Below are positions 8,411-31,974 of a stretch of 32,000 nt of DNA, one piece after another (position 1 is the stretch's first letter; each line of letters begins with the position of its first letter). Where the stretch lies: assembly GCF_000008645.1 (NCBI RefSeq), contig NC_000916.1:1200001-1232000 (forward strand), written 5' to 3'. Source of the DNA: Methanothermobacter thermautotrophicus str. Delta H. Its GTDB lineage: Archaea > Methanobacteriota > Methanobacteria > Methanobacteriales > Methanothermobacteraceae. The position numbers were made by a program, and so were the translations under genes. Below the pieces are notes generated by a model. The model saw nothing but the letters and a program-made list of their open reading frames with translations. It made no database searches and had not been told where the DNA came from.

Positions 8411-8926
8411 TTAACCTTCAAAGCACGGAATACAAACCATCCTACCATTCTTTACTCGTGCACGGTGCTCTGAGACGGGTTCACCACACTCTGCGCATAT
8501 GATGGACCCATATATCCTTGCCTCCTCTGGAGGTTTCTCTGAAACATCCCTGACCTCAAAGAGGTCATGTGGATCCATTTCAAGTATCTTCTCTGTCAGT
8601 TCAGCCCTGTCCGTAACCCCGAGTTCCTTCATGAGCTGATCCATTGGTTTTTTAAGTGATATCCTGATTCCATCGCCTGTTTTCCTGTTGAAGAATGTGT
8701 AAACATGTTTTCCGTAATCCCTGAATATCAGGTTGCCCTTTCCAAAGGTGCACCCAGTCATGAACTGGATGGCGTCTATGCTGCAGCTGTCATTCTCAAC
8801 AACCGCCACTATCTCCTCATCCTCTGACCTTCCAAATCTTTCAGCTACGATCTCACCGACCTTGTATCCGAGGGCAGTGCCGGCACAGGAGTGACCGTGA
8901 AATCCAACTATATCCTCATAATCCAT
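8411..8926 (-). CDS. FmdE-family protein with C-terminal zinc ribbon (cytoplasmic)
   Basis: It has the FmdE signature [17 protein letters not shown] and a C-terminal CAECGEP...CIPC. The ORF track starts at 9007. The ATG at 8926 is preceded by a strong GGGAGGGTGAT site at 4 nt, whereas 9007 has none. Confidence 0.8.
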
Positions 8927-9095
8927 AACTATCACCCTCCCTATCTCTGGATCACGATTCAGATATAGGTGATGGTGGTAAACCATGTTTTCATTATTAC
9001 CTTTCATTTAAATCAACAAAAAAATGTAATAATATATCTTTATATTGTAAGAAGAGATTAGTTAACACGAAACAAATTAGAGGGAGGTGAAATGG

Positions 9096-11888
9096 ATGAG
9101 GAGATTATTCATGGTTTCAGTTCTTTTCCTTCTGGCCATGCTTACTGGTTCAGTGGCAGCTGCAGACAACGCAACCTGCGAGGTTGGTGTCCTTGTCAGC
9201 TACCAGTACAGCGATGATAACGGTAGGATCAATCCGACCCTCGAAATCACGGATTCAGGTACAGGCATAGAATACAACCGGACCTACGACCCATCCAGTG
9301 GTTATACAAAGCTGATCTTCCAGCATTCAAACATAAGCGCGGCAAACCTTACACTGACTGTGAGGGCACCGGGCTACGTTACCGTCGAGAGAAGGTTAAA
9401 CCTCACACCGAACCCCATGGACCCCCGGCACACCGGGTACTATGCAAGCATAAACCTTGTTCTAAATGCAACCGAACCATACCGGATCGGTAGAGAGTTG
9501 ACAGAAAAAGCAGATAAGCTCCTGAACTTCACAGGGAAGGGAGAAGTTCTTGTTATAACAACAGCCGGCCTTGTGAAGTACCATAATATGACTACAGAGG
9601 ATGTCCTGGAGGGAATACTTAACAGGGGAGGTGGCCTGATAAGCTACGGCAGAGCTAACCTCCTTACAGTCCGAAAAACAGCCACAGATCCTCTGTGTAC
9701 GGCTTTCATAGTGAGGAAGGGTAACGATCTTCTCATGGCATTCTACAGGAACACCACACTGGTGTACCTTGGAACGGTGTCCCAGAACATGAGCTCTGCC
9801 CAGTGGAACAACCTTACATCAAAGCTGGGGGATGATGCCTTCCCCTTCGCAAGCCTTGCAAATGCATGGGCAGCTGGAGCACCAGCAGATCTGCTCAAAC
9901 AGGCCGCATTCCATGGACACATGTGCCTGGGTACCATAAGCGGATATGCCATGAGTAAAACCATCTACATGTACTATCCACCTATCCAGGACTGGTCCAC
10001 CGGTTCACCCATAGAGATAACCAGCTACGTCACCATAGGTGTTCCCGGCGGCTCAGACGATGATGCCCTCATACTTGCACTCGATAACACCCCCGGGAAG
10101 AGGTCATACCTCGGCTTCGATACAACCGGTGCCGGTGCAGAGGACAGTATGGTGGGCTTCATAAGGTGGAACTCAAGGACAAACACCGGTACCCTTGTGG
10201 TCATGAAGTTCGACCAGCAGGCACTCATAGATACCTACAAAAGGGAGACCGGAGTATCAATGGTTCAGGAACTCAAATTCAATGCCTGGCTCGTTAAAAA
10301 GGTCACAGAGAACCCTGCCTCCATTGTAACTATCGTTAAGGAACTCGACAACCTGACAGCCGACCAGTACTACTACCTGGCAGGAAGGGAGGTCAACTAC
10401 AACCAGGTAAATGAGACCCATGGACTGGACATGAACTACATAAACAGCCTCAATCTGCCAAACGCCACCAGGGCAAATGTGAATGCAACATGGAATCCTG
10501 TGAGCTATGCTGAGCTCCGTGAAATCGGTAGAAGGGCCGCTGAAATGGCTAAGGAGATATTCCTGGCTGAGAGAGGAATAAACCTTGAAAGGGACGATCT
10601 CAATGTAGCTGTCCTCACATCAGCCGGTTACGTCTACCTGAACGGCACCCCGACCGATGGCTGCTACGACGGAATATTCAGCGTTCTTGGTTCAAGGCTA
10701 AGCAGGAAAAACCTTCTGCCAGTCCACAGCCCATTCTACAAACCACTATGGTTCACCTTCGTCTTGAAGGGTGCTGATGGGAAAACACTGGACTCAGTGC
10801 ATATAACCTACAATCCACTGACAGGTGAACTGAGTGCCGGAGCAGGGCCGGATGGTTCACGGGTTAACGATATAGGTCCCGCAGCCCTCAATAACGCGAC
10901 AAGGGATAACGCCAATTCCGCGATATTCGGTAGCTCCTACTTCAGCATTGAGAGCATAGCCAATGCCTGGAAGTACAGCATCCCCTATGACCAGCTGGTA
11001 ACCTTCCTGTTCCACAACCATGTCTGTCCGGGTGTCCAGCCAGGATTCTTCATCACCGAGTACGCCCTTGAGAACTATCCACTTGCAGCCGGCCAGCAGT
11101 ATCAGTGGTTCGGGACAAGCATATACTGCAAGGATGACGCCCTCCTCTACCTCATGGGTGTTAGTCCCGGTACCGGGACCTACTTCGCCAAGAGGGTCCT
11201 CCAGGAGGAACTCGAATCCCCGATGGTACCCGGTGGAAGTGAAGAGGGAATACTCATAGTCTGGGATCCAGTTAAGAAGGTTGGTAAGGCTGTGATGATA
11301 AGCTTCAGGTGGCCAGAGTTCGACCTCAGCGACTGCACCACAAGGAACGCCATGTTCGAGAAGTGGGCTGCCGCCTTTATAATGCTCTACAGTGGCCAAA
11401 CACCATCCTACATGACGTCCCCAATGGTCCTCACAAAGGAGGTTGAGAAGTGGATAACCGAGGACGAACTCAGGGTGATACAGAGCGGTGCAAACGGTAA
11501 CCCCCTGGCATACCTGCGTTCAATACCTGCACGAAACCTTGAGGACCTTATACCTGTGAACAACGGTGGAACACCAGTTAACACAGGAGGAAACCAGGGA
11601 GGTTCCCATGGTGGTTCAACTGGAGGTGTTCCTTCAGGTTCAGCTTTCACAGGACATGCAGGTTATTCACCGGGTGTGGATACTGCGGCTTCACCTGCAG
11701 AGGTGGGCGCTGCATCCTCAGTGTCAGAGGAGCCTGCATCAGCCCCTGCAAAGGCCTATGAGGTTAAGAATGTGACCTCAGGTGCCAGGGGCGGTGACTC
11801 CTCATGGTACGTCTACGGTATCGTGGGTGTCCTTGTTGCCGCTGGTCTTGTGGCCTTCGGATTCCTCAGGGGCGGAGCAGGAAAATAA
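9096..11888 (+). CDS. Secreted, C-terminally membrane-anchored protein with two FmdE-like domains
   Basis: GGGAGGTGA lies 5 nt upstream of the ATG at 9096. There is a signal peptide (MRRLFMVSVLFLLAMLTGSVAAADN) and a PEGA/Ig-like N-terminal module (LTVRAPGYVTVERRLNL). Two FmdE-type HxH-x-C-x-G motifs are present: FHGHMCLG at nt 9909-9932 and FHNHVCPG at nt 11010-11033. Many N-x-S/T sequons occur. The C-terminus has a G/S-rich linker, KAYEV, and a TM helix. Confidence 0.8.
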   Translation: MRRLFMVSVLFLLAMLTGSVAAADNATCEVGVLVSYQYSDDNGRINPTLEITDSGTGIEYNRTYDPSSGYTKLIFQHSNISAANLTLTVRAPGYVTVERRLNLTPNPMDPRHTGYYASINLVLNATEPYRIGRELTEKADKLLNFTGKGEVLVITTAGLVKYHNMTTEDVLEGILNRGGGLISYGRANLLTVRKTATDPLCTAFIVRKGNDLLMAFYRNTTLVYLGTVSQNMSSAQWNNLTSKLGDDAFPFASLANAWAAGAPADLLKQAAFHGHMCLGTISGYAMSKTIYMYYPPIQDWSTGSPIEITSYVTIGVPGGSDDDALILALDNTPGKRSYLGFDTTGAGAEDSMVGFIRWNSRTNTGTLVVMKFDQQALIDTYKRETGVSMVQELKFNAWLVKKVTENPASIVTIVKELDNLTADQYYYLAGREVNYNQVNETHGLDMNYINSLNLPNATRANVNATWNPVSYAELREIGRRAAEMAKEIFLAERGINLERDDLNVAVLTSAGYVYLNGTPTDGCYDGIFSVLGSRLSRKNLLPVHSPFYKPLWFTFVLKGADGKTLDSVHITYNPLTGELSAGAGPDGSRVNDIGPAALNNATRDNANSAIFGSSYFSIESIANAWKYSIPYDQLVTFLFHNHVCPGVQPGFFITEYALENYPLAAGQQYQWFGTSIYCKDDALLYLMGVSPGTGTYFAKRVLQEELESPMVPGGSEEGILIVWDPVKKVGKAVMISFRWPEFDLSDCTTRNAMFEKWAAAFIMLYSGQTPSYMTSPMVLTKEVEKWITEDELRVIQSGANGNPLAYLRSIPARNLEDLIPVNNGGTPVNTGGNQGGSHGGSTGGVPSGSAFTGHAGYSPGVDTAASPAEVGAASSVSEEPASAPAKAYEVKNVTSGARGGDSSWYVYGIVGVLVAAGLVAFGFLRGGAGK

Positions 11889-22918: not shown

Positions 22919-24904
22919 TCACCTCCATATCGTTAATTGATGAATGCCTGGACTCAATAGCCGAGTAGGGTGCCGGCAGTGTATATGATGAAGGAGGCTA
23001 TCCAGGCCACGAACACTGAGTATAACGGTGAGAAGAGGGCCCACCTCTTGCCTTACTCCTTCTTTATATAATATCAGTGTCGCCAGGCAGGGTGTATAGA
23101 GCAGCACGAATACCATGAACGACAGAGCCTCCAGTGGTGTGAAGGCGCCCTGTATGCTTGCTGCGATATTAGCTGCCCCGTGGACCGTTCCGAAGGTGCT
23201 TATGACAAGCTCCTTTGCCGCGAAACCAGATAGAATTGCGACCGCGGACTGCCAGTCACCGAATCCCAGGGGATGGAATATGGGTGCCATGATGGAGCCC
23301 AGGGTCCCGAGTATGGACGAGGAAACATTTCCACCCGGGAACCCTGAAAGGAACCATATGATCACCGAACCTGCAAATATTATGGTCCCGGCCTTCTTTA
23401 TGAACTGGATGCCTCTGTGGTACGTGTGAATCAGGAGAGTCCTGGGCCTCGGAAGCCTGTATGGTGGAAGCTCCATCAGGAAGAGGAAACCTTCACCCAT
23501 GACCACTTCACCCAGCAGACGGGCGGTTATGATCGCCACTGCAATTCCCAGGATGTAGAGGAAAAATATGACCCATCCCTGATAGATGAGGGGGAAGAGG
23601 GCTGACGTGAAGAGCACGTAGACAGGGAGCCTGGCACTGCATGACATGAAGGGTATCATGAGGCTTGTGAGAATCCTCTCCCTCTCAGATCCTATGGTCC
23701 TTGTTGCCATTACCCCCGGGACACAGCACCCGAAGCCAAGCATCATGGGGATGAATGACCTGCCGCTTAGACCCGCCACTGAATTCATTACACGATCCAT
23801 GACAAAGGCTGCCCTTGCCAGGTACCCTGAATCCTCAAGGAAGGTGAGGAGGAGGAAGAGTATGAAGATGTTCGGTGTGAAGACGAGGACCGATCCAACA
23901 CCTCCTATCACACCATCTGCCAGGAGGGACCCTGCAGCTGAGTCTCCAAGGGCGCCCTGAACTGCTCCTGCAAGGTGGGAAACACCAGCATCAATCAGCT
24001 CTGTAAGTGGAGCCCCTGCAGTGAAGGTGAGCTGGAAGATCAGCCACATCACCCCCAGGAGAATCGGGAGCCCCAAGTACCTGTTAAGTACAGCGCGATC
24101 TATAAGTTCAGAGACCGTTACCCTGTCAAGGGAGGGTCTCGTGAGGGACCTCTCCAGGAGTCCCTCTATGAGGCCGTACCTTGCATCTGACACCAGGATG
24201 TCCGCATCAGCAGAGTGCTCCTCCTCAAGGATCCTTCTGATCCTCTCAAATTCCTTGATGAGGTCCTCACCAACCATTGAGGCAACCCTTTTATCCCCTT
24301 CAAGAAGTTTTATTATGATCCATTCAGCTGGAAAATCTGCCTCAACGTCTTCAAGAAGTTCCCTGAATTCCTTAATAGCATCTGACCTCAAAAATTCATA
24401 TCTGATCTGTGGAGGGTTACTATTCACCTGTCTTATGGCTGCTTCAAGCAATTCATCCTGATTTCCTTCAATGGCCTCCACCTTTATGACCGGCACCCCC
24501 AGCAGTTCCTCAAGTCTCTTCTCATCAAGCCTGTATCCCTTCCTCTCTGATTCACGGTTGAGGTTCACTGCGATGATGGTGTTGAGGCCGAACTCGAGGA
24601 TCTGAAGTGTGAGGTAGAGGTTCCTCTCAAGATTGGATGCATCAACAACACTGATTATGAGGTCCGGTCTCTCATCAAGGAGATAATCAACGACCACCTC
24701 CTCCTCGGGAGATCCCGCTGTTAGACTGTAGGTTCCTGGGAGATCTGTAATTTCAATATCATTTTCCCTGAAGTTCAGGTATCCTGTTTTCTTTTCAACA
24801 GTCTTCCCTGGCCAGTTTCCAACGTGCTGATTGAGTCCCGTAAGGTTATTGAAGAGGGTGCTCTTTCCAACATTCGGGTTTCCTGCAAGTGCTATTCTGA
24901 GCAT
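22919..24904 (-). CDS. feoB: Ferrous iron transporter FeoB (C-terminus apparently frameshifted near 23053)
   Basis: The G-domain motifs are GNPNVGKST and DLPGTYSL, followed by a long polytopic membrane domain. The canonical last helix is encoded in the +1 frame and ends at 22954 (see findings). Confidence 0.9.
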   Translation of the reverse strand: MLRIALAGNPNVGKSTLFNNLTGLNQHVGNWPGKTVEKKTGYLNFRENDIEITDLPGTYSLTAGSPEEEVVVDYLLDERPDLIISVVDASNLERNLYLTLQILEFGLNTIIAVNLNRESERKGYRLDEKRLEELLGVPVIKVEAIEGNQDELLEAAIRQVNSNPPQIRYEFLRSDAIKEFRELLEDVEADFPAEWIIIKLLEGDKRVASMVGEDLIKEFERIRRILEEEHSADADILVSDARYGLIEGLLERSLTRPSLDRVTVSELIDRAVLNRYLGLPILLGVMWLIFQLTFTAGAPLTELIDAGVSHLAGAVQGALGDSAAGSLLADGVIGGVGSVLVFTPNIFILFLLLTFLEDSGYLARAAFVMDRVMNSVAGLSGRSFIPMMLGFGCCVPGVMATRTIGSERERILTSLMIPFMSCSARLPVYVLFTSALFPLIYQGWVIFFLYILGIAVAIITARLLGEVVMGEGFLFLMELPPYRLPRPRTLLIHTYHRGIQFIKKAGTIIFAGSVIIWFLSGFPGGNVSSSILGTLGSIMAPIFHPLGFGDWQSAVAILSGFAAKELVISTFGTVHGAANIAASIQGAFTPLEALSFMVFVLLYTPCLATLILYKEGVRQEVGPLLTVILSVRGLDSLLHHIHCRHPTRLLSPGIHQLTIWR

Positions 24905-24906
24905 TT

Positions 24907-25134
24907 TTAATCCCTTACCCCTATCCTCGATGCTTCTCCCTTACGGATGGAAAAGGGATGGCCCTTCACCCTAACCTTCAGGGGGTCTCCCAGGGGTGCA
25001 GAGTTCTCAACAGTGACCCTGGATCCCCTTAATAGCCCCATAACAGTTAATCTTTGCCTTATATCCCCTGGAAGGTTAACGGATGTCACAGTCACAGTCG
25101 TGCCTTCCTTTATTCTGTCGAGTGTTGTTTCCAT
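24907..25134 (-). CDS. feoA: FeoA
   Basis: 75-aa SH3-like FeoA pattern (RQRLTVMGLLRGSRVTV). Its stop lies 2 nt before the feoB start. Confidence 0.85.
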   Translation of the reverse strand: METTLDRIKEGTTVTVTSVNLPGDIRQRLTVMGLLRGSRVTVENSAPLGDPLKVRVKGHPFSIRKGEASRIGVRD

Positions 25135-25237: not shown

Positions 25238-28200
25238 TCAGTATCTTCCCTGGAAGAAGTAACCCACTCCAAGGAGACACACAAGGCTTATAACACCAAT
25301 TATAGCATATATGGGAGTCTGAGTGCTTGAAGAGGTGCTGTTGGTTGATGCTGCAACCTCATAGGCCTTTCCAGAACCTTCAGAAGCTCCAGAGTTTTCT
25401 GAAACCTCTGATGACTCTAAAGCCTCATCTGACGATGAACCTGATGCTCCGCCTGCATTCCCTGCGGAACCTGAAGAAGGTTCACCTGTCTCACCGATTC
25501 CATCCCCATTCACTGAGCCCGGCTGTGAATCCCCAGAGCCAGGAACATCAATGGACTTCCCTGTGGCTGCAGCCATTGCAGCCGCAAATTTTCTGAGGGC
25601 CGCCTGGTTGAGGGATGATAGCTTCACCACCCAGCTGTTGAAGACCATGTTGGCACATGTGTGGTGACAGCAGACAACACCATACTCATTAACCGCCGCG
25701 ATGTACTCATCGGCAAGCCTCTGCAGTGTAGCTGAATCTGTGCTCCAGAGGCCCCTGCGGCTGGCCTCAAGGAGCCAGGCTACCGTTGAGGCATAGGAGT
25801 AGGGCTGAAGACTCTTAAATCTGCTGCTTACCTGAGGATCAAAGACATAGGTCTCTGCAACCTTCTGCCACATCCAGTCCTGGACCAGATCAGGGGTGAC
25901 TGCACTCCAGCCGAATAGATGTCCTATCTCCTTGGATATCTGATGAGCACCTGAGAATCCCTGATTCAGCATTCCCTCAATCCATTTCGGGTTGTAGGTC
26001 CTTGTTCTGAGTTCTGCTGCAATGAAATCTGCCAGTGTCTCCATTCGTGGTGTGAACCTTGTATTGGCGATGTATGAGGCAACATTCCTTCCTGAAATGG
26101 TCCTTGCAGCCATCGTGAGACCCCCAAGGTACTGGTAAACGTCGTCGTTGTCAAGAACACCGTAAACACTGTCCCTGACCTGTACTGTTGCATCCACATT
26201 TGATAGCTGCTTCATGAAGACCTCCTTTGCATCAATGGCGTATATGTCCTTTCCATAGATGAATCCCATATGATTCAGGTAGGTTTCAAGGAGCTGTGAC
26301 TGATTATCCCACTTTGCAGTTGATTCAACCACTTCAGGTAGCCCGGTACCGTAACTTCCAGGGGCACTGCCAAATATCCTTGCACCGGCAAGTGTCTCCG
26401 CTGCCTGTAAACCCCTGGCAGTATAATTCGCCAGGTCTGCAAGGTAATGTTTCCTGAGGTAGTTGCCTTCCACCGGTTCATCCAGTTTCATGACAAGCCT
26501 TATCGCCTCATCCATCCTGTCGATACTGTAGGCAAATGTGTCTCTGAACAGTCCACTGATAGTGACCAGAACATCGATTCTGGGCCTTCCAAGCACTTCC
26601 AGGGGTGTTACACTTATTCCTGTGAATCTTCCTGATTTATCCCATACCGGTTCAGCTCCGATGAGTCTCAGAACCATTGCTATTGTCTGACCACTGGTCC
26701 TCATGGTCTCAATTGCCCAGAGAACCACCCCAACAGATTCGGGATATCTGCCATTCCTTGAAAGGTAATCTGCAATGAGGTCATCTGCCATCTTCTTACC
26801 GATCTCCCATGCAGCCCTATCAGGTGCAAGTCTGGGGTCAAAGGAATAGGAATTCCTTCCCGTCGGCAGGAGGTCGGGTATCCTTATGGGATCAGCCCCC
26901 CGACCCGGTTCAACAAAACGTCCCTCAAGGGCCCTCAGAAGGTTTGTGATCTCCTGGTCAGTGGCAAGTTTCTCTCTTACGGCATTCCGGAACTCTGTGT
27001 TATTCCTCGATGCTGGGTCAAAGCTCACAATTGCCTCCACCATTGCATCAAGGAGCTCCCCGCTAAGGGGTTCCCCGAAGACATGTAACCCGTAGGGTAT
27101 CAGTGTTGCTGATAGCTCATCAAGCCTGTGCTCAATTCGATCAAGGGCCTCTTCAAAGGAAGCATTGAGGTCAATGTTAAGTTCCCTGTGAAGGTCCAGT
27201 TTAACCGTGAGATTTCTGATTTCCTCAGCGATTATCAGCTTTCTCTGGGGATCCTCAGACGTATGGTAAAGGTTAATTTTGTGTTCAAGTTCAGATAGAT
27301 CCCCGTAAAGTTCACTTACCACCATAGGGGGGATGTTATGGTTTATGAGGACCGCGTACCCACGCCTCTTTGCCTGAGTCCCCTCACCCGGGTTGTTTAC
27401 GATGTAGGGGTAGATATGTGGCAGGTCACCTATCATCACGTCGGGCCAGTCAAGGGATGATAGACCAACTGATTTCCCTGGTAACCATTCGAGGGTTCCG
27501 TGTGTACCAAGATGTATAACTGCGTTGAAGTTTTTCTGAAGCCAGAGATAGAATGCAAGGTACTGGTGGTGCGGTGGGAGTGTTGTTGAATGTATGAGGT
27601 CAGCTGCATCCTCGCCGAATCCGCGCATTGGCTGGGGGCCGAGGAATACGTTGCCAAGCATAACACCCGGGATCACTATGCTGCCATTGTAGACCATGAC
27701 GTTTCCAGGGGCAGGTCCCCATGTCGCTGTTATGTTATTTCTCAGGGTTTCTGGCAGTAGACTGAACCAGTTAAGGTATTCAGATACTGGAACTGTTACT
27801 GCGCCGGCCCTGACAACCTTCTCAAGTTCACCCGGAGCCCATGAACCCACATTCAGGCCCGGCCCGAGGAGTATGTTTATCACCTCTGCAGTGGATTTTT
27901 CCTCAACATTGTAGCCAGCACTCCTTAGCGCCCTCAGTATGTTGCTGATGCTCTCTGGTACGTTGAGGTAACTCGCACTGATACCATCCTTACCCCCACC
28001 AATGTTGTAGTATATAAGGGCTATCTTCTTCTCCGCATTTGGAAGTTCCCTTAACTTTATCCAGTTGATCAATCTCTCTGTGAGCCTCTCTATCCTTTCA
28101 GGAATCGGAACATAGTATGTATAACGCAGCCCTGTCTGAGGGTCTGTCTCCTCAACTCCGCCGCCGATCATGACTGGCTCTATCCTTCCGTCGATCTCTG

Positions 28201-29227
28201 GAAGTGCTATCTGCCAGTACACCTCAGATGAAAGTCCTGATATGCTCTCGTTCCATGCCCTGAGATTTGATGCATAGACCGCAGCAATTGCGGGTAAATC
28301 AAGTTCCGTGAGGATTGCTGTGGAGTTCAGGGGATCACCGCTGTATAAATTGAAGCCCATGCATGTTATGAGACCGCTGATCCTGGGAGTCCTGTTACCA
28401 TCCAGGAAGAAGTTCTCAATAAGGTTCCGCTTTGTAGCTGTGTCAGCTGCAAAGCCAAGGATCACATTGTAACCCTTTCTCTCAAGGCTCTCAAGTATGG
28501 CGGTGTGCATTCTCATGTCGCTTCCACGGTAGTATGTATCGAATGTGATTATGCCCACCCATGGTTTTCCTGCCCTGTAGTGGCCGCTCTGAACATACCA
28601 GGAGTAGTAACGGTCCCATGCTGTGAACTGTTCGCCGGCGTCGGGGTGATATACAAATGATTTCACCGCGGGAATGGCTGTTACATTCTCCTCATTTTTT
28701 AGCTGCATTCCAGCATCCCTCAGAAGGAGGAGCATCATTCTCCGGAAGTTCTCGGGGCCTCCCTGATCCCAGATGTACTTCACTGTTGCGTTGTCCGCAC
28801 CCACACGGGGATCATCCTTGAATGTGTTGCCGGTTCCTATGGCAATTATTTTGCTGGCCCCCGTAACATTAAGGATTGGATTGACCTTCGCCAGGGTGTT
28901 TGGAGAACTTATCATCTGAATGAGAATCACGTCAGCCTTTCTACCCGCCTCCAGTGCCGCCATGTCTATCTGAGGATCGTTCCTTAGAAGTTCATCGTTT
29001 GTGAACATTGAAAGATTGAATCTGTAGCCGTCCCGTCCTGCAAGTTTATAGCCTTCCACTATTGCCTTTGTACTCGAAGTTGACCCTGTGATTATGAGAA
29101 TACTGTAATGGGAAGAATTCTGCTGAATCGCACCCTCTGTGACGTTGCTGCTGTTATCAGCCGCTGAAACACCTCCCGCAAGCATGATTGTCATGAGTAG
29201 AATCACTGGAATAACTGATGTCCTCAA
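25238..29227 (-). CDS. CobN/Mg-chelatase-H-family protein with signal peptide and C-terminal membrane anchor (predicted cell-surface)
   Basis: 1329-aa ORF. The TTG start lies 5 nt after a GGAGGTG site. There is a signal peptide (MRTSVIPVILLMTIMLAGGVSAADN) and the CobN/BchH hallmark HLGTHGTLEWLPGK. Many N-x-S/T sequons occur. The C-terminus has a G/S/E-rich linker, KAYEV, and a TM helix (IYAIIGVISLVCLLGVGYFF). Confidence 0.85.
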   Translation of the reverse strand: MRTSVIPVILLMTIMLAGGVSAADNSSNVTEGAIQQNSSHYSILIITGSTSSTKAIVEGYKLAGRDGYRFNLSMFTNDELLRNDPQIDMAALEAGRKADVILIQMISSPNTLAKVNPILNVTGASKIIAIGTGNTFKDDPRVGADNATVKYIWDQGGPENFRRMMLLLLRDAGMQLKNEENVTAIPAVKSFVYHPDAGEQFTAWDRYYSWYVQSGHYRAGKPWVGIITFDTYYRGSDMRMHTAILESLERKGYNVILGFAADTATKRNLIENFFLDGNRTPRISGLITCMGFNLYSGDPLNSTAILTELDLPAIAAVYASNLRAWNESISGLSSEVYWQIALPEIDGRIEPVMIGGGVEETDPQTGLRYTYYVPIPERIERLTERLINWIKLRELPNAEKKIALIYYNIGGGKDGISASYLNVPESISNILRALRSAGYNVEEKSTAEVINILLGPGLNVGSWAPGELEKVVRAGAVTVPVSEYLNWFSLLPETLRNNITATWGPAPGNVMVYNGSIVIPGVMLGNVFLGPQPMRGFGEDAADLIHSTTLPPHHQYLAFYLWLQKNFNAVIHLGTHGTLEWLPGKSVGLSSLDWPDVMIGDLPHIYPYIVNNPGEGTQAKRRGYAVLINHNIPPMVVSELYGDLSELEHKINLYHTSEDPQRKLIIAEEIRNLTVKLDLHRELNIDLNASFEEALDRIEHRLDELSATLIPYGLHVFGEPLSGELLDAMVEAIVSFDPASRNNTEFRNAVREKLATDQEITNLLRALEGRFVEPGRGADPIRIPDLLPTGRNSYSFDPRLAPDRAAWEIGKKMADDLIADYLSRNGRYPESVGVVLWAIETMRTSGQTIAMVLRLIGAEPVWDKSGRFTGISVTPLEVLGRPRIDVLVTISGLFRDTFAYSIDRMDEAIRLVMKLDEPVEGNYLRKHYLADLANYTARGLQAAETLAGARIFGSAPGSYGTGLPEVVESTAKWDNQSQLLETYLNHMGFIYGKDIYAIDAKEVFMKQLSNVDATVQVRDSVYGVLDNDDVYQYLGGLTMAARTISGRNVASYIANTRFTPRMETLADFIAAELRTRTYNPKWIEGMLNQGFSGAHQISKEIGHLFGWSAVTPDLVQDWMWQKVAETYVFDPQVSSRFKSLQPYSYASTVAWLLEASRRGLWSTDSATLQRLADEYIAAVNEYGVVCCHHTCANMVFNSWVVKLSSLNQAALRKFAAAMAAATGKSIDVPGSGDSQPGSVNGDGIGETGEPSSGSAGNAGGASGSSSDEALESSEVSENSGASEGSGKAYEVAASTNSTSSSTQTPIYAIIGVISLVCLLGVGYFFQGRY

Positions 29228-30993: not shown

Positions 30994-31974
30994 TCAGAAT
31001 ATCATGAGAAGTCCCCGCCCGGTTCCCCAGATTATACTCACCGCTATGATGAGTATAACAAATATGGATACGTAGCTAACAGCAGGCTTCACAATCCTCT
31101 CAGGTAACCTGTACCTCAGGAGCTCCTCAAACATCAGACCGCCGTCCAGGGGCTTCGCAGGAAGTAGGTTCACCGTACCAACCGCAAAGTTGAGGAAGAA
31201 TATCCAGAAGAAGAGTTCCTCAAGATAGGTCAGGGCGAAGGGTAAGGTATCCCCCAACACTGATGCAACGGAGTCCCTCACCCGTAGGTGGTTGCTGGTC
31301 CGGATGCCCATGTAGGCCCTGCTTGAGTTGTTAGGATTCCTCCCGGTCTTCAGGTGAAAGGTCCCCTGATCCGTGGTTATATTGATAACCTCCCCCACAC
31401 TTATCGTTTTGAGTGCAGCGCTGTAGGTTGTCAGGTTACTTGTTGGCATCCCGTTGATGCTCTCAATTACAAGTCCAGGGGTGAGGACCTTGCTCGCCGG
31501 GCTTCCTGGCACAACACTGTCTATCTGAACACCATCTGGCTGGAATGCCGCGGGCATGGCAAAGCTCGAAATACCGAAGAAGAGGGCGAAGCATATACCT
31601 GCAAGTATAAGGTTTGCCACGGATCCGGCAGCATATATCCTCATCTTTGAGATGGGTCTGATTTTTTTGATGTCCTCCTCGTCAGGTTCAACAAATGCGC
31701 CCGGAAGTATTGCGAGGAGAAGGAGGCCTATTGATTTTATACGGACACCCTCCAGCCTTGCAAGGATACCATGGGCAAACTCATGGACCACGATGACCGT
31801 CGCAAGTCCAATTATACCATACCCCAGGGGCACGTAGACCGGTGACCCGGGTATGTCAACACCCGGCACTATGAGTGACGCCTGGGGAGTTACAAATATG
31901 TTCTGGAGGGACATCACAAGCATGTATAGCATGTAGAACATGAAGAAGAATGCCACGGGTATGCCTGCATTCAT
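30994..31974 (-). CDS. Site-2 protease family (M50) membrane metalloprotease with PDZ domain
   Basis: It has HEFAHG, NLLPAKPLDGG and a PDZ-like insert (VVPGSPASKVLTPGLVIESINGMP). The reading frame stays open upstream to the window edge, so the true start may lie beyond 32000. Confidence 0.85.
   Translation of the reverse strand: MNAGIPVAFFFMFYMLYMLVMSLQNIFVTPQASLIVPGVDIPGSPVYVPLGYGIIGLATVIVVHEFAHGILARLEGVRIKSIGLLLLAILPGAFVEPDEEDIKKIRPISKMRIYAAGSVANLILAGICFALFFGISSFAMPAAFQPDGVQIDSVVPGSPASKVLTPGLVIESINGMPTSNLTTYSAALKTISVGEVINITTDQGTFHLKTGRNPNNSSRAYMGIRTSNHLRVRDSVASVLGDTLPFALTYLEELFFWIFFLNFAVGTVNLLPAKPLDGGLMFEELLRYRLPERIVKPAVSYVSIFVILIIAVSIIWGTGRGLLMIF

Follow-up and report, generated by a model that had tools for sequence, protein, structure and literature searches.

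Two of the secreted proteins encoded in a 32,000-nucleotide stretch of the Methanothermobacter thermautotrophicus str. Delta H genome (NC_000916.1, positions 1,200,001 to 1,232,000; hereafter the window) differ in what they carry outside the cell, one being FmdE-like and the other a relative of the CobN/ChlH/HmuS class I chelatases, and share an arrangement at their C-termini: a low-complexity linker, the pentapeptide KAYEV, a polar spacer, a single transmembrane (TM) helix and a short end. The question raised by this locus is what such a tail is for. An original prediction, made from the letters of the window, suggested that the tail, together with a motif at the signal-peptide end, might be a lineage-specific sorting, processing or glycosylation signal of envelope proteins, by analogy with archaeosortase and exosortase systems. 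The analysis described here indicates, on the evidence of sequence comparison, that the tail is a modular C-terminal domain of about 46 amino acids (aa) belonging to Sec-exported, wall-spanning proteins of the Methanobacteriaceae, a previously unmodelled domain for which we coin the name KxYE-CTERM. As to its function, we tentatively favor, with a little less than even confidence, the view that it is a retained anchor whose KxYE box and helix dock the protein to an ExbB/DUF2149 motor, so that the protein would be a client of that motor or an inverted TonB-like adaptor.

The KxYE-CTERM Tail as a Conserved Domain

The C-terminal ends, G/S-rich linkers, spacers, single TM segments and basic ends originally described for the two window proteins were all borne out by the translations of their open reading frames (ORFs), which end in ...SAPAKAYEVKNVTSGARGGDSSWYVYGIVGVLVAAGLVAFGFLRGGAGK for the FmdE-like protein (the tail is also given as ...PAKAYEVKNVTSGARGGDSSWYVYGIVGVLVAAGLVAFGFLRGGAGK) and in ...SEGSGKAYEVAASTNSTSSSTQTPIYAIIGVISLVCLLGVGYFFQGRY for the CobN-like protein (likewise ...GSGKAYEVAASTNSTSSSTQTPIYAIIGVISLVCLLGVGYFFQGRY). 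More generally, the tail consists of a box, G-K-[AS]-Y-E-[VI]-[ST]-K, followed by 11–17 polar residues, a glycine-patterned TM helix running to G-x-G-[YF], and 2–3 basic residues. Across 222 distinct tails, the box logo reads G49, K67, A54/S37, Y93, E98, V70/I26, S51/T25 and K53, the distance from box to helix has its mode at 14 residues, and 2–3 Lys or Arg residues follow the helix in most cases. The helix has the consensus Y-A-[IV]-[VI]-G-V-L-x-L-x-x-L-x-G-x-G-[YF]-[FM]-[RK], with a weakly conserved [PW]-x-Y-A at its start, and the conservation of its positions shows no clear 100-degree signal of helical periodicity. AlphaFold2, run on the tail alignment, returned a single helix at residues 22–44 of a 49-aa tail (pLDDT 87–97) and left the box extended or unstructured, which is how a linear docking motif would be expected to look.

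Relatives of the FmdE-like protein, about 120 in a homology search, come from Methanothermobacter, Methanobacterium, Methanobrevibacter and Methanosphaera; every full-length one has this C-terminal layout, and the tail is kept in about 115 FmdE-like orthologues, while the G/S-rich linker in front of it is unconserved. Among 1.84 billion representative proteins, a profile built from 47 tails matched 134 clusters (at 50% identity) with E ≤ 1e-3 and 27 with E ≤ 1e-10, almost all of them at the extreme C-terminus. The passengers are CobN/HmuS-like proteins of 1,215–3,293 aa (45 clusters), FmdE-like proteins (19 clusters) and small proteins of about 280 aa with a signal peptide and CLIPPER/DUF11 domains (seven clusters), joined by beta-helix/Chlam_PMP proteins, Big_3_5/Big_1 adhesin-like proteins and several without a Pfam match. 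All carriers with a source name belong to the Methanobacteriaceae, Methanosphaera proteins (P0085) included, and one FmdE-like protein from a metagenome-assembled genome labelled “Methanomicrobiales archaeon” has a Methanobacterium-type tail. The original expectation of a lineage-specific signature marking a set of envelope proteins is thus well founded, given these orthologues and clusters and at least five passenger architectures.

The sole exception to the taxonomic limit is a small FmdE-like group with RAYEVE tails on a GC-rich contig (locus L001, 7955-13189; also L002 and L003), judged to be bacterial-looking from its GC content of 0.64 and from its neighboring genes (Germane, Polysacc_deac_1, DUF4015 and Zincin_2). 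Its module of DUF2162-like, MotA_ExbB, DUF2149 and RAYEVE-tailed FmdE-like genes looks as though it had been horizontally transferred.

It is the whole tail that is diagnostic. A DNA pattern scan for GK[AS]YEV[ST]K over 185,579 species genomes gave at least 120 matches; nine of the 120 listed are true tails, in which a TM helix and then a stop codon come next, and these are all from Methanobacteriaceae, whereas the other 111 lie inside unrelated proteins, and therefore the octapeptide alone is not sufficient. From their translations, we take these off-target proteins to include ribosomal protein L9 of Verrucomicrobiota/Chthoniobacterales (GKAYEVTK), a Ku-like protein of Streptomyces and a Nocardia enzyme. 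Within the L9-looking protein, GKAYEVTK is conserved at loci L005, L008, L009 and about 60 others.

Existing models pass over the tail. With Pfam and NCBIfam (release 20, June 2026), the full window proteins gave no C-terminal sorting-domain match at E ≤ 1, and the tail profile found nothing significant in the PDB. The only model that aligns to the tail at all is the CobN equivalog NF004645, whose last 50 positions contain it. KAYEV had not been recognized as a described motif when it was first pointed out, and it can now be said that no Pfam, NCBIfam or PDB entry models this tail. In the literature searched, only a general remark bears on such ends: C-terminal TM segments are noted for 14 adhesin-like proteins of M. 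ruminantium and for the BchH-like mru2047 (PMC2812497).

Linkage to DUF2162, MotA/ExbB and DUF2149

Genes for tailed proteins recur near a three-gene module that encodes DUF2162 (a predicted transporter), a MotA/ExbB-family channel (PF01618) and DUF2149, the last a single-pass protein of 111–131 aa with an invariant TM Asp in the motif N-[LM]-V-D-x-M-L-V. A Methanobacterium locus (L130) runs CobN-tail (3,293 aa), CobN-tail (1,404 aa), DUF2162, MotA_ExbB, DUF2149; L011 runs FmdE-tail, CobN-tail, DUF2162, ExbB, DUF2149; L127 runs CLIPPER-tail, ExbB, DUF2149; and in the bacterial-looking L001 the order is DUF2162-like, ExbB, DUF2149, FmdE-tail, with the tail complete. Orthologues of the two window proteins co-occur in a Methanobacterium operon and thus are partners there; in the window their genes stand 13 kb apart, with FeoA and FeoB coming next after the CobN-like gene.

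Since a search that starts from tails is biased toward them, the association was also examined from the side of the motor. With a DUF2149 alignment, 80 metagenome loci were fetched, 34 of which were non-redundant with at least 5 kb of upstream sequence. A same-strand tail ORF ends no more than 3.5 kb upstream of DUF2149 in 25 of these 34 loci (74%), a tail lies somewhere in the upstream 10 kb in 27, and the counts are 45 tails in 352 kb upstream versus none in 321 kb downstream. This set takes in an operon of Methanothermobacter type (L142) and a tailed passenger without a Pfam match in a Big-repeat cluster (L181). Two operons (L183 and L202) add CbiM and small His-rich anchored proteins, and in L160 a FeoA/FeoB pair stands between the FmdE-tail gene and DUF2162-ExbB-DUF2149.

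Upstream of DUF2149, adjacent CobN-like paralogues (L157, L159, L161, L147 and L149) are near-identical over their last 60 or so residues, though they differ in length and domain content, which suggests that the tail has undergone concerted evolution or gene conversion. Another protein, P0222 (1838 aa), has within residues 520–720 a KxYE tail (584–626) after which the reading frame continues into another signal peptide and a repeat of the protein N-terminus; as read from its sequence, it would be an in-frame fusion of two tandem paralogues or the product of a lost stop codon.

Small secreted proteins of 150–180 aa are encoded beside FmdE-like genes (L027:2855-3313, minus strand; L108:6138-6626, minus; L124:12916-13401, plus; L202:3462-4007, plus). 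They are predicted to have a mature N-terminus beginning HPGHG(H/N), a low-complexity stalk and a C-terminal TM anchor, and the HPGHG(H/N) start looks like a His-rich metal site. In several such neighbors a degenerate version of the KxYE box, [SN]VEEV or SYDVEEV, stands about 15–20 aa ahead of the helix.

A Retained Anchor That Docks to a Motor?

How might the tail work if it serves as a docking device? After export and ordinary removal of the signal peptide, a tailed protein would become a type I membrane protein tethered by its C-terminal helix, with the basic end positive-inside, and the long, unconserved low-complexity linker would carry the catalytic or adhesive ectodomain through the pseudomurein. 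The box, held extended about 14 residues above the membrane, and the glycine-patterned helix would form a docking module for an operon-encoded membrane complex made up of DUF2162, the MotA/ExbB-type proton channel and DUF2149, which may be ExbD/TolR-like by virtue of its TM Asp; the three would be counterparts of HmuT/U/V. On grounds of linkage and geometry, the tailed proteins could then be clients of the motor or inverted TonB-like adaptors, the KxYE box playing the part of the TonB D-box as a strand captured by the ExbD-type partner, and the tail would not be removed.

This docking model is proposed because unrelated passengers in motor operons share the tail, because a bacterial-looking genome has preserved the tail in full alongside exactly these partner genes, and because tandem CobN paralogues keep near-identical tails. 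Docking also appears more likely than a sortase-type cleavage signal, because the tail is common to many envelope proteins and is found in operons that also encode a proton-driven motor.

Several points nevertheless weigh against docking. Neither ExbB nor DUF2149 had a match in the window, so that neither of its tail genes is near them, and the tail genes at L124 and L129 also stand away from both. The DUF2149 profile has no detectable similarity to ExbD/TolR structures in the PDB, where it gave only insignificant TM matches, and the term “ExbD-like” refers to architecture and the TM Asp. In the same operons there are other small anchored proteins without a clean KxYE box. The operon linkage could reflect the function of the passengers, such as metal or tetrapyrrole acquisition, and not that of the tail. 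Finally, the TonB anchor is N-terminal and its linker Pro-rich, whereas the anchor of the tail is C-terminal and the linker G/S/E-rich, and the direction of the chain relative to the membrane is therefore reversed.

Alternative Explanations

The alternative that survives best, though it is somewhat unlikely, is that the tail is a plain permanent anchor with no specific link to the motor, in which the box has some other local role; candidates are glycosylation or another modification at Tyr/Glu, contact of the box with the inner face of the pseudomurein, homo-oligomerization of the stalk, or a protease “shedding” site. An S/T-rich stalk with a C-terminal TM anchor is common to many archaeal surface proteins (PMC3387779), neither window gene is close to motor genes, the same being true of several other tail genes, and the PDB resemblances of the tail, all weak and insignificant, are to dimerizing single-pass helices. 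Both window proteins have an N-x-S/T sequon directly after the box, and so do 38 of the 222 tails; as this is only 17% of them, N-glycosylation cannot account for the conservation of the box, and it was rejected as the reason. A plain anchor also leaves unexplained the tail genes that stand immediately upstream in 74% of DUF2149 loci, with none downstream, and the intact tail of a bacterial-looking operon.

A cleaved sorting signal, which was the analogy originally drawn, is distinctly unlikely. Here a transpeptidase or protease would recognize KxYE[VI], remove the spacer, helix and basic end, and attach the protein to pseudomurein, to a lipid-bound wall precursor or to lipid, the candidates being the class-E-like core sortase of pseudomurein archaea and some archaeosortase-like enzyme. 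The tripartite layout of motif, TM and basic end at the extreme C-terminus, after a low-complexity stalk, is that of Gram-positive LPXTG proteins, and the tail is found on unrelated passengers, adhesin-like ones included. Moreover, M. thermautotrophicus is reported to have two sortases and no LPxTG proteins (PMC2812497; PMC3087415), and another study found a Sortase E orthologous group in each of the five pseudomurein-archaeon genomes that it analyzed (PMC11915815). Against cleavage stand the position of the box, 11–17 residues from the helix, and the silence of the sorting-signal models: the CTERM sorting-domain hidden Markov models (HMMs) of NCBIfam and Pfam (PF18204, PF26596 and PF26597) match neither the full proteins nor ten diverse tails above cut-off, even when the tails are scanned at E ≤ 10. 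The best score on the tails, 15.7 for TIGR01167 with a cut-off of 15.9, comes from an alignment to the TM and basic part only, and the NPXTG, SrtB-target and GVDTG models are all far under cut-off. Among about 90 loci inspected by gene content, no peptidase or sortase gene recurs beside tail genes, and neither the M50 protease nor the C39 peptidase near the window recurs as a neighbor at other loci. By gene content the 32-kb window holds no archaeosortase gene, the rest of the genome not having been searched for one. M. stadtmanae is listed with no sortases (PMC2812497), yet Methanosphaera proteins are tailed, and in the bacterial-looking genome that has the full tail, the only co-located conserved partners are DUF2162-like, ExbB and DUF2149.

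The lineage also has a separate signal. Two CLIPPER/DUF11-PKD surface proteins (L126:6954-11810 and L135:640-2565, both on the plus strand) end in VPMQPTG or VPMQKTG, then a TM helix and a basic end. The VPMQ[KP]TG-TM-basic signal is found on Methanobacteriaceae-type contigs, in one case in the same gene cluster as a KxYE-tailed CobN, and it is an LPXTG-like signal and a likely substrate motif of the “orphan” archaeal class-E-like sortase, which would therefore have more conventional candidate substrates than the KxYE tail. With the setback of the box, the lack of a CTERM match, this separate signal and the linkage to a motor instead of a peptidase, the analogy to sortase and archaeosortase systems is weakly supported.

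The remaining alternative turns on the codons of the box. KAYEV is encoded by the same 15 nucleotides at 11751-11765 (plus strand) and 25355-25369 (minus strand), as first reported; a degenerate DNA pattern for K-A-Y-E-V occurs in the window only at these two sites, with 0 expected from shuffles, and, given the peptide, identical codons have p ~0.014 under the codon usage of the window. The 45 nucleotides flanking the 15-mer are unrelated (16/45 and 8/45 identities between the two genes), which argues against a recently copied tail, and the two tails, 30% identical overall, are each closer to the tails of their own orthologues in other genera than to each other. Coincidence or a recent local event, in which the tail came to be common to the two genes by intragenomic recombination or duplication and has no wider meaning, is highly improbable, for although it could draw on the identical codons and on the homogenized tails of adjacent CobN paralogues elsewhere, recent recombination between the two genes was rejected on account of the unrelated flanks and the conservation of the tail across genera, clusters and passenger architectures, which rules out a motif confined to two proteins.

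The Two Window Proteins and Their Surroundings

The coordinates of the two genes and of their parts are given in Table 1. Scored against all ORFs of the window, the tail profile matches only the CobN-like protein (E 1e-21) and the FmdE-like protein (E 1e-16). The FmdE-like protein is laid out as a signal peptide, two FmdE-type regions, the low-complexity linker and the KxYE tail, and is identical to P0003 on CP064324.1 (GCA_027554905.1), also from M. thermautotrophicus. For the CobN-like protein, the Pfam model CobN-Mg_chel scores 1139 bits, and its PDB relatives are CobN (7c6o), ChlH (4zhj) and the heme dechelatase HmuS (9d26, E 1e-148). This exported protein scores 832.7 bits with the BchH equivalog TIGR02025, whose cut-off is 829, and is far under the cut-offs of all CobN equivalogs; automatic annotation would therefore make it “magnesium chelatase subunit H”, despite its signal peptide and membrane anchor.

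The shared letters at the ends of the two signal peptides, ...TGSVAAADNAT in the FmdE-like and ...AGGVSAADNSS in the CobN-like protein, have an ordinary explanation. Among 97 distinct N-termini of these proteins, the consensus of the c-region is G-[GAT]-V-S-A, then cleavage, then [AEVT]-[DN], and secreted neighbors without a KxYE box have like cleavage sites, for example ...VVSA before HPGHG and ...GSASA before ATAP. In its short form, G-x-V-S-A before [AE]-[DN], this is the ordinary signal-peptidase I site of the lineage with an acidic or amide residue following, and is not linked to the tail. The N-terminal motif of the original prediction is thus present in the letters described, and its proposed role as a special sorting motif falls, since the site occurs on nearly all secreted proteins of the lineage examined, tail-less ones included.

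Table 1. Positions, within the window, of the two tailed genes, the parts of their products and the adjoining feo genes.
Feature	Position	Strand	Sequence or remark
FmdE-like secreted protein, 930 aa	9096..11888	+	ATG start at 9096, alternative GTG at 9087; Pfam FmdE PF02663, E 3.5e-22
Sec signal peptide, FmdE-like	9096..9161	+	MRRLFMVSVLFLLAMLTGSVAA; predicted signal-peptidase I cleavage before ADN, position inferred
Low-complexity linker, FmdE-like	11559..11750	+	G/S/A-rich, sequence unconserved; presumed wall-spanning stalk
KAYEV box, FmdE-like	11751..11765	+	
Polar spacer, FmdE-like, 13 residues	11766..11804	+	KNVTSGARGGDSS; N-x-T sequon
TM helix, FmdE-like	11805..11867	+	WYVYGIVGVLVAAGLVAFGFL; conserved G...G-x-G-F pattern; AlphaFold2 and column conservation
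Short basic cytoplasmic end, FmdE-like	11868..11885	+	RGGAGK
CobN/ChlH/HmuS-like class I chelatase homologue, secreted, 1329 aa	25238..29227	-	TTG start; KxYE tail
Sec signal peptide, CobN-like	29162..29227	-	(M)RTSVIPVILLMTIMLAGGVSA; predicted cleavage before ADN
Low-complexity linker, CobN-like	25370..25549	-	G/S/E-rich
KAYEV box, CobN-like	25355..25369	-	same 15 nucleotides as 11751-11765
S/T-rich spacer, CobN-like, 14 residues	25313..25354	-	AASTNSTSSSTQTP; N-S-T sequon
TM helix, CobN-like	25253..25312	-	IYAIIGVISLVCLLGVGYFF; tail profile E 1e-21
Short cytoplasmic end, CobN-like	25241..25252	-	QGRY
FeoA-like gene, 75-aa ORF	24907-25134	-	next gene after the CobN-like one; functional context, outside the tail
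FeoB gene	22919-24904	-	after the FeoA-like gene, same strand as the CobN-like gene; context only

Two other genes of the window may be mentioned. A small cytoplasmic protein with FmdE and zinc-ribbon (zf-dskA_traR) domains is encoded at 8411-9007 on the minus strand, as the divergent neighbor of the secreted FmdE-like gene. A polytopic ORF of 326 aa at 30994-31974 (minus strand) contains an HExxH motif (HEFAHG), from which we take it to be M50/site-2-protease-like.

Implications

An HMM of the 46-aa tail is a searchable signature for a coherent set of envelope proteins in the Methanobacteriaceae, including the dominant methanogens of the human gut and the rumen. Its carriers are at present misleadingly annotated as cytoplasmic “cobaltochelatase CobN”, “magnesium chelatase H” or “FmdE family”, and a curated model would correct their predicted location and would mark out surface-exposed vaccine targets for methane mitigation; the BchH-like mru2047, which is one of them, has already served as a vaccine antigen (PMC2812497). 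The tail ties its carriers to an ExbB/DUF2149 motor and to iron or tetrapyrrole acquisition of the Hmu kind. The link between tail and motor provides hypotheses for the role of MotA/ExbB homologues in archaea without an outer membrane, and of HmuT/U/V, and bears on why methanogens carry many exported CobN paralogues, a point raised as unexplained (PMC12583661).

A broader proposal, credible though unlikely as it stands, is that a Ton/Tol-like proton-motive machine composed of DUF2162, ExbB and DUF2149 delivers force or a signal to the wall-spanning enzymes and adhesins of the Methanobacteriaceae by way of a dedicated C-terminal adaptor, the tail, whose KxYE box would be an inverted functional analogue of the TonB D-box. 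If true, it would place envelope energy transduction outside diderm bacteria, in monoderm archaea with a pseudomurein wall, and would suggest how HmuS-type dechelatases couple to HmuUV in Bacteroidota.

Comparison with Known Systems

The motifs of LPXTG, PGF-CTERM, PEP-CTERM and related signals abut the helix at the membrane interface. Like the KxYE tail, the LPXTG signal (TIGR01167) is modular, stands at the C-terminus after a low-complexity wall-spanning region, and consists of a motif, a hydrophobic helix and basic residues. Unlike it, the KxYE box is unrelated in sequence and lies about 14 residues from the helix; the span of 11–17 aa between K-[AS]-Y-E-[VI] and the TM segment is outside the 0 to about 10 aa that separate an LPXTG motif from its hydrophobic segment, the HMM score is under cut-off, and the lineage has VPMQxTG besides. 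The archaeosortase/exosortase signals (PGF-, PEF-, VPXXXP-, PIP- and PEP-CTERM) are likewise lineage-specific and short, each a C-terminal domain that combines a signature motif with a TM segment and a basic cluster, and they are found on many surface proteins, often behind S/T-rich regions. In contrast to these signals, none of whose models matches the tail, the KxYE box is set back from the outer TM boundary by some 14 polar residues, and the range of passengers is narrow, dominated by three operon-linked families.

TonB offers a parallel for docking. It too has a single-pass TM anchor with a short, conserved motif near the membrane, which in the tail is predicted to be extended or unstructured, and a long flexible or rigid spacer across the envelope; its genes too are accompanied by those for a channel of the MotA/ExbB family and for a small protein of one TM pass that has an Asp in its helix. 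The TonB anchor comprises approximately residues 12–32, and if these boundaries, given here from general knowledge, are used, the spacing between box and membrane would be about the same in the tail as for the D-box of TonB. This D-box (residues 46–49, just after the anchor) is captured by the ExbD dimer through strand recruitment, while the membrane helix of TonB contacts ExbB (PMC10907165). The differences are considerable: tailed proteins have no SHLS motif, Pro-rich spacer or TonB C-terminal domain, their ectodomains are enzymes or adhesins, and there is no outer membrane or TonB-dependent receptor. MotA_ExbB and DUF2149 genes lie directly downstream of tail genes in 25 of the 34 loci, and DUF2149 is not detectably homologous to ExbD. 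With its C-terminal anchor, its G/S/E-rich linker and no TonB_C domain, the tail is therefore not a member of the TonB family and could only be a functional analogue.

The Hmu heme-uptake operon of Bacteroidota, hmuYRSTUV, resembles the archaeal loci in gene order, hmuS-T-U-V corresponding to CobN-like, membrane protein, MotA/ExbB and DUF2149. This order is found in relatives (L130, L011, L142 and others) and not in the window, where FeoA and FeoB follow the CobN-like gene. By gene content neither an HmuY hemophore nor an HmuR TonB-dependent receptor is encoded at the archaeal loci, which instead add FmdE-like, CLIPPER, CbiM and small His-rich partners. Like the CobN-like protein of the window, HmuS has the CobN/ChlH fold, hydrophobic helices at both its N- and C-termini, and a predicted place on the outer face of the cytoplasmic membrane. 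The HmuS of B. thetaiotaomicron is a heme dechelatase, predicted to be tethered by its N- and C-terminal helices and proposed to feed Fe2+ to FeoB, and its many archaeal homologues have been remarked on as unexplained (PMC12583661). The presence of FeoAB beside the CobN-like gene of the window fits the route for iron from HmuS to FeoB proposed for B. thetaiotaomicron in that study.

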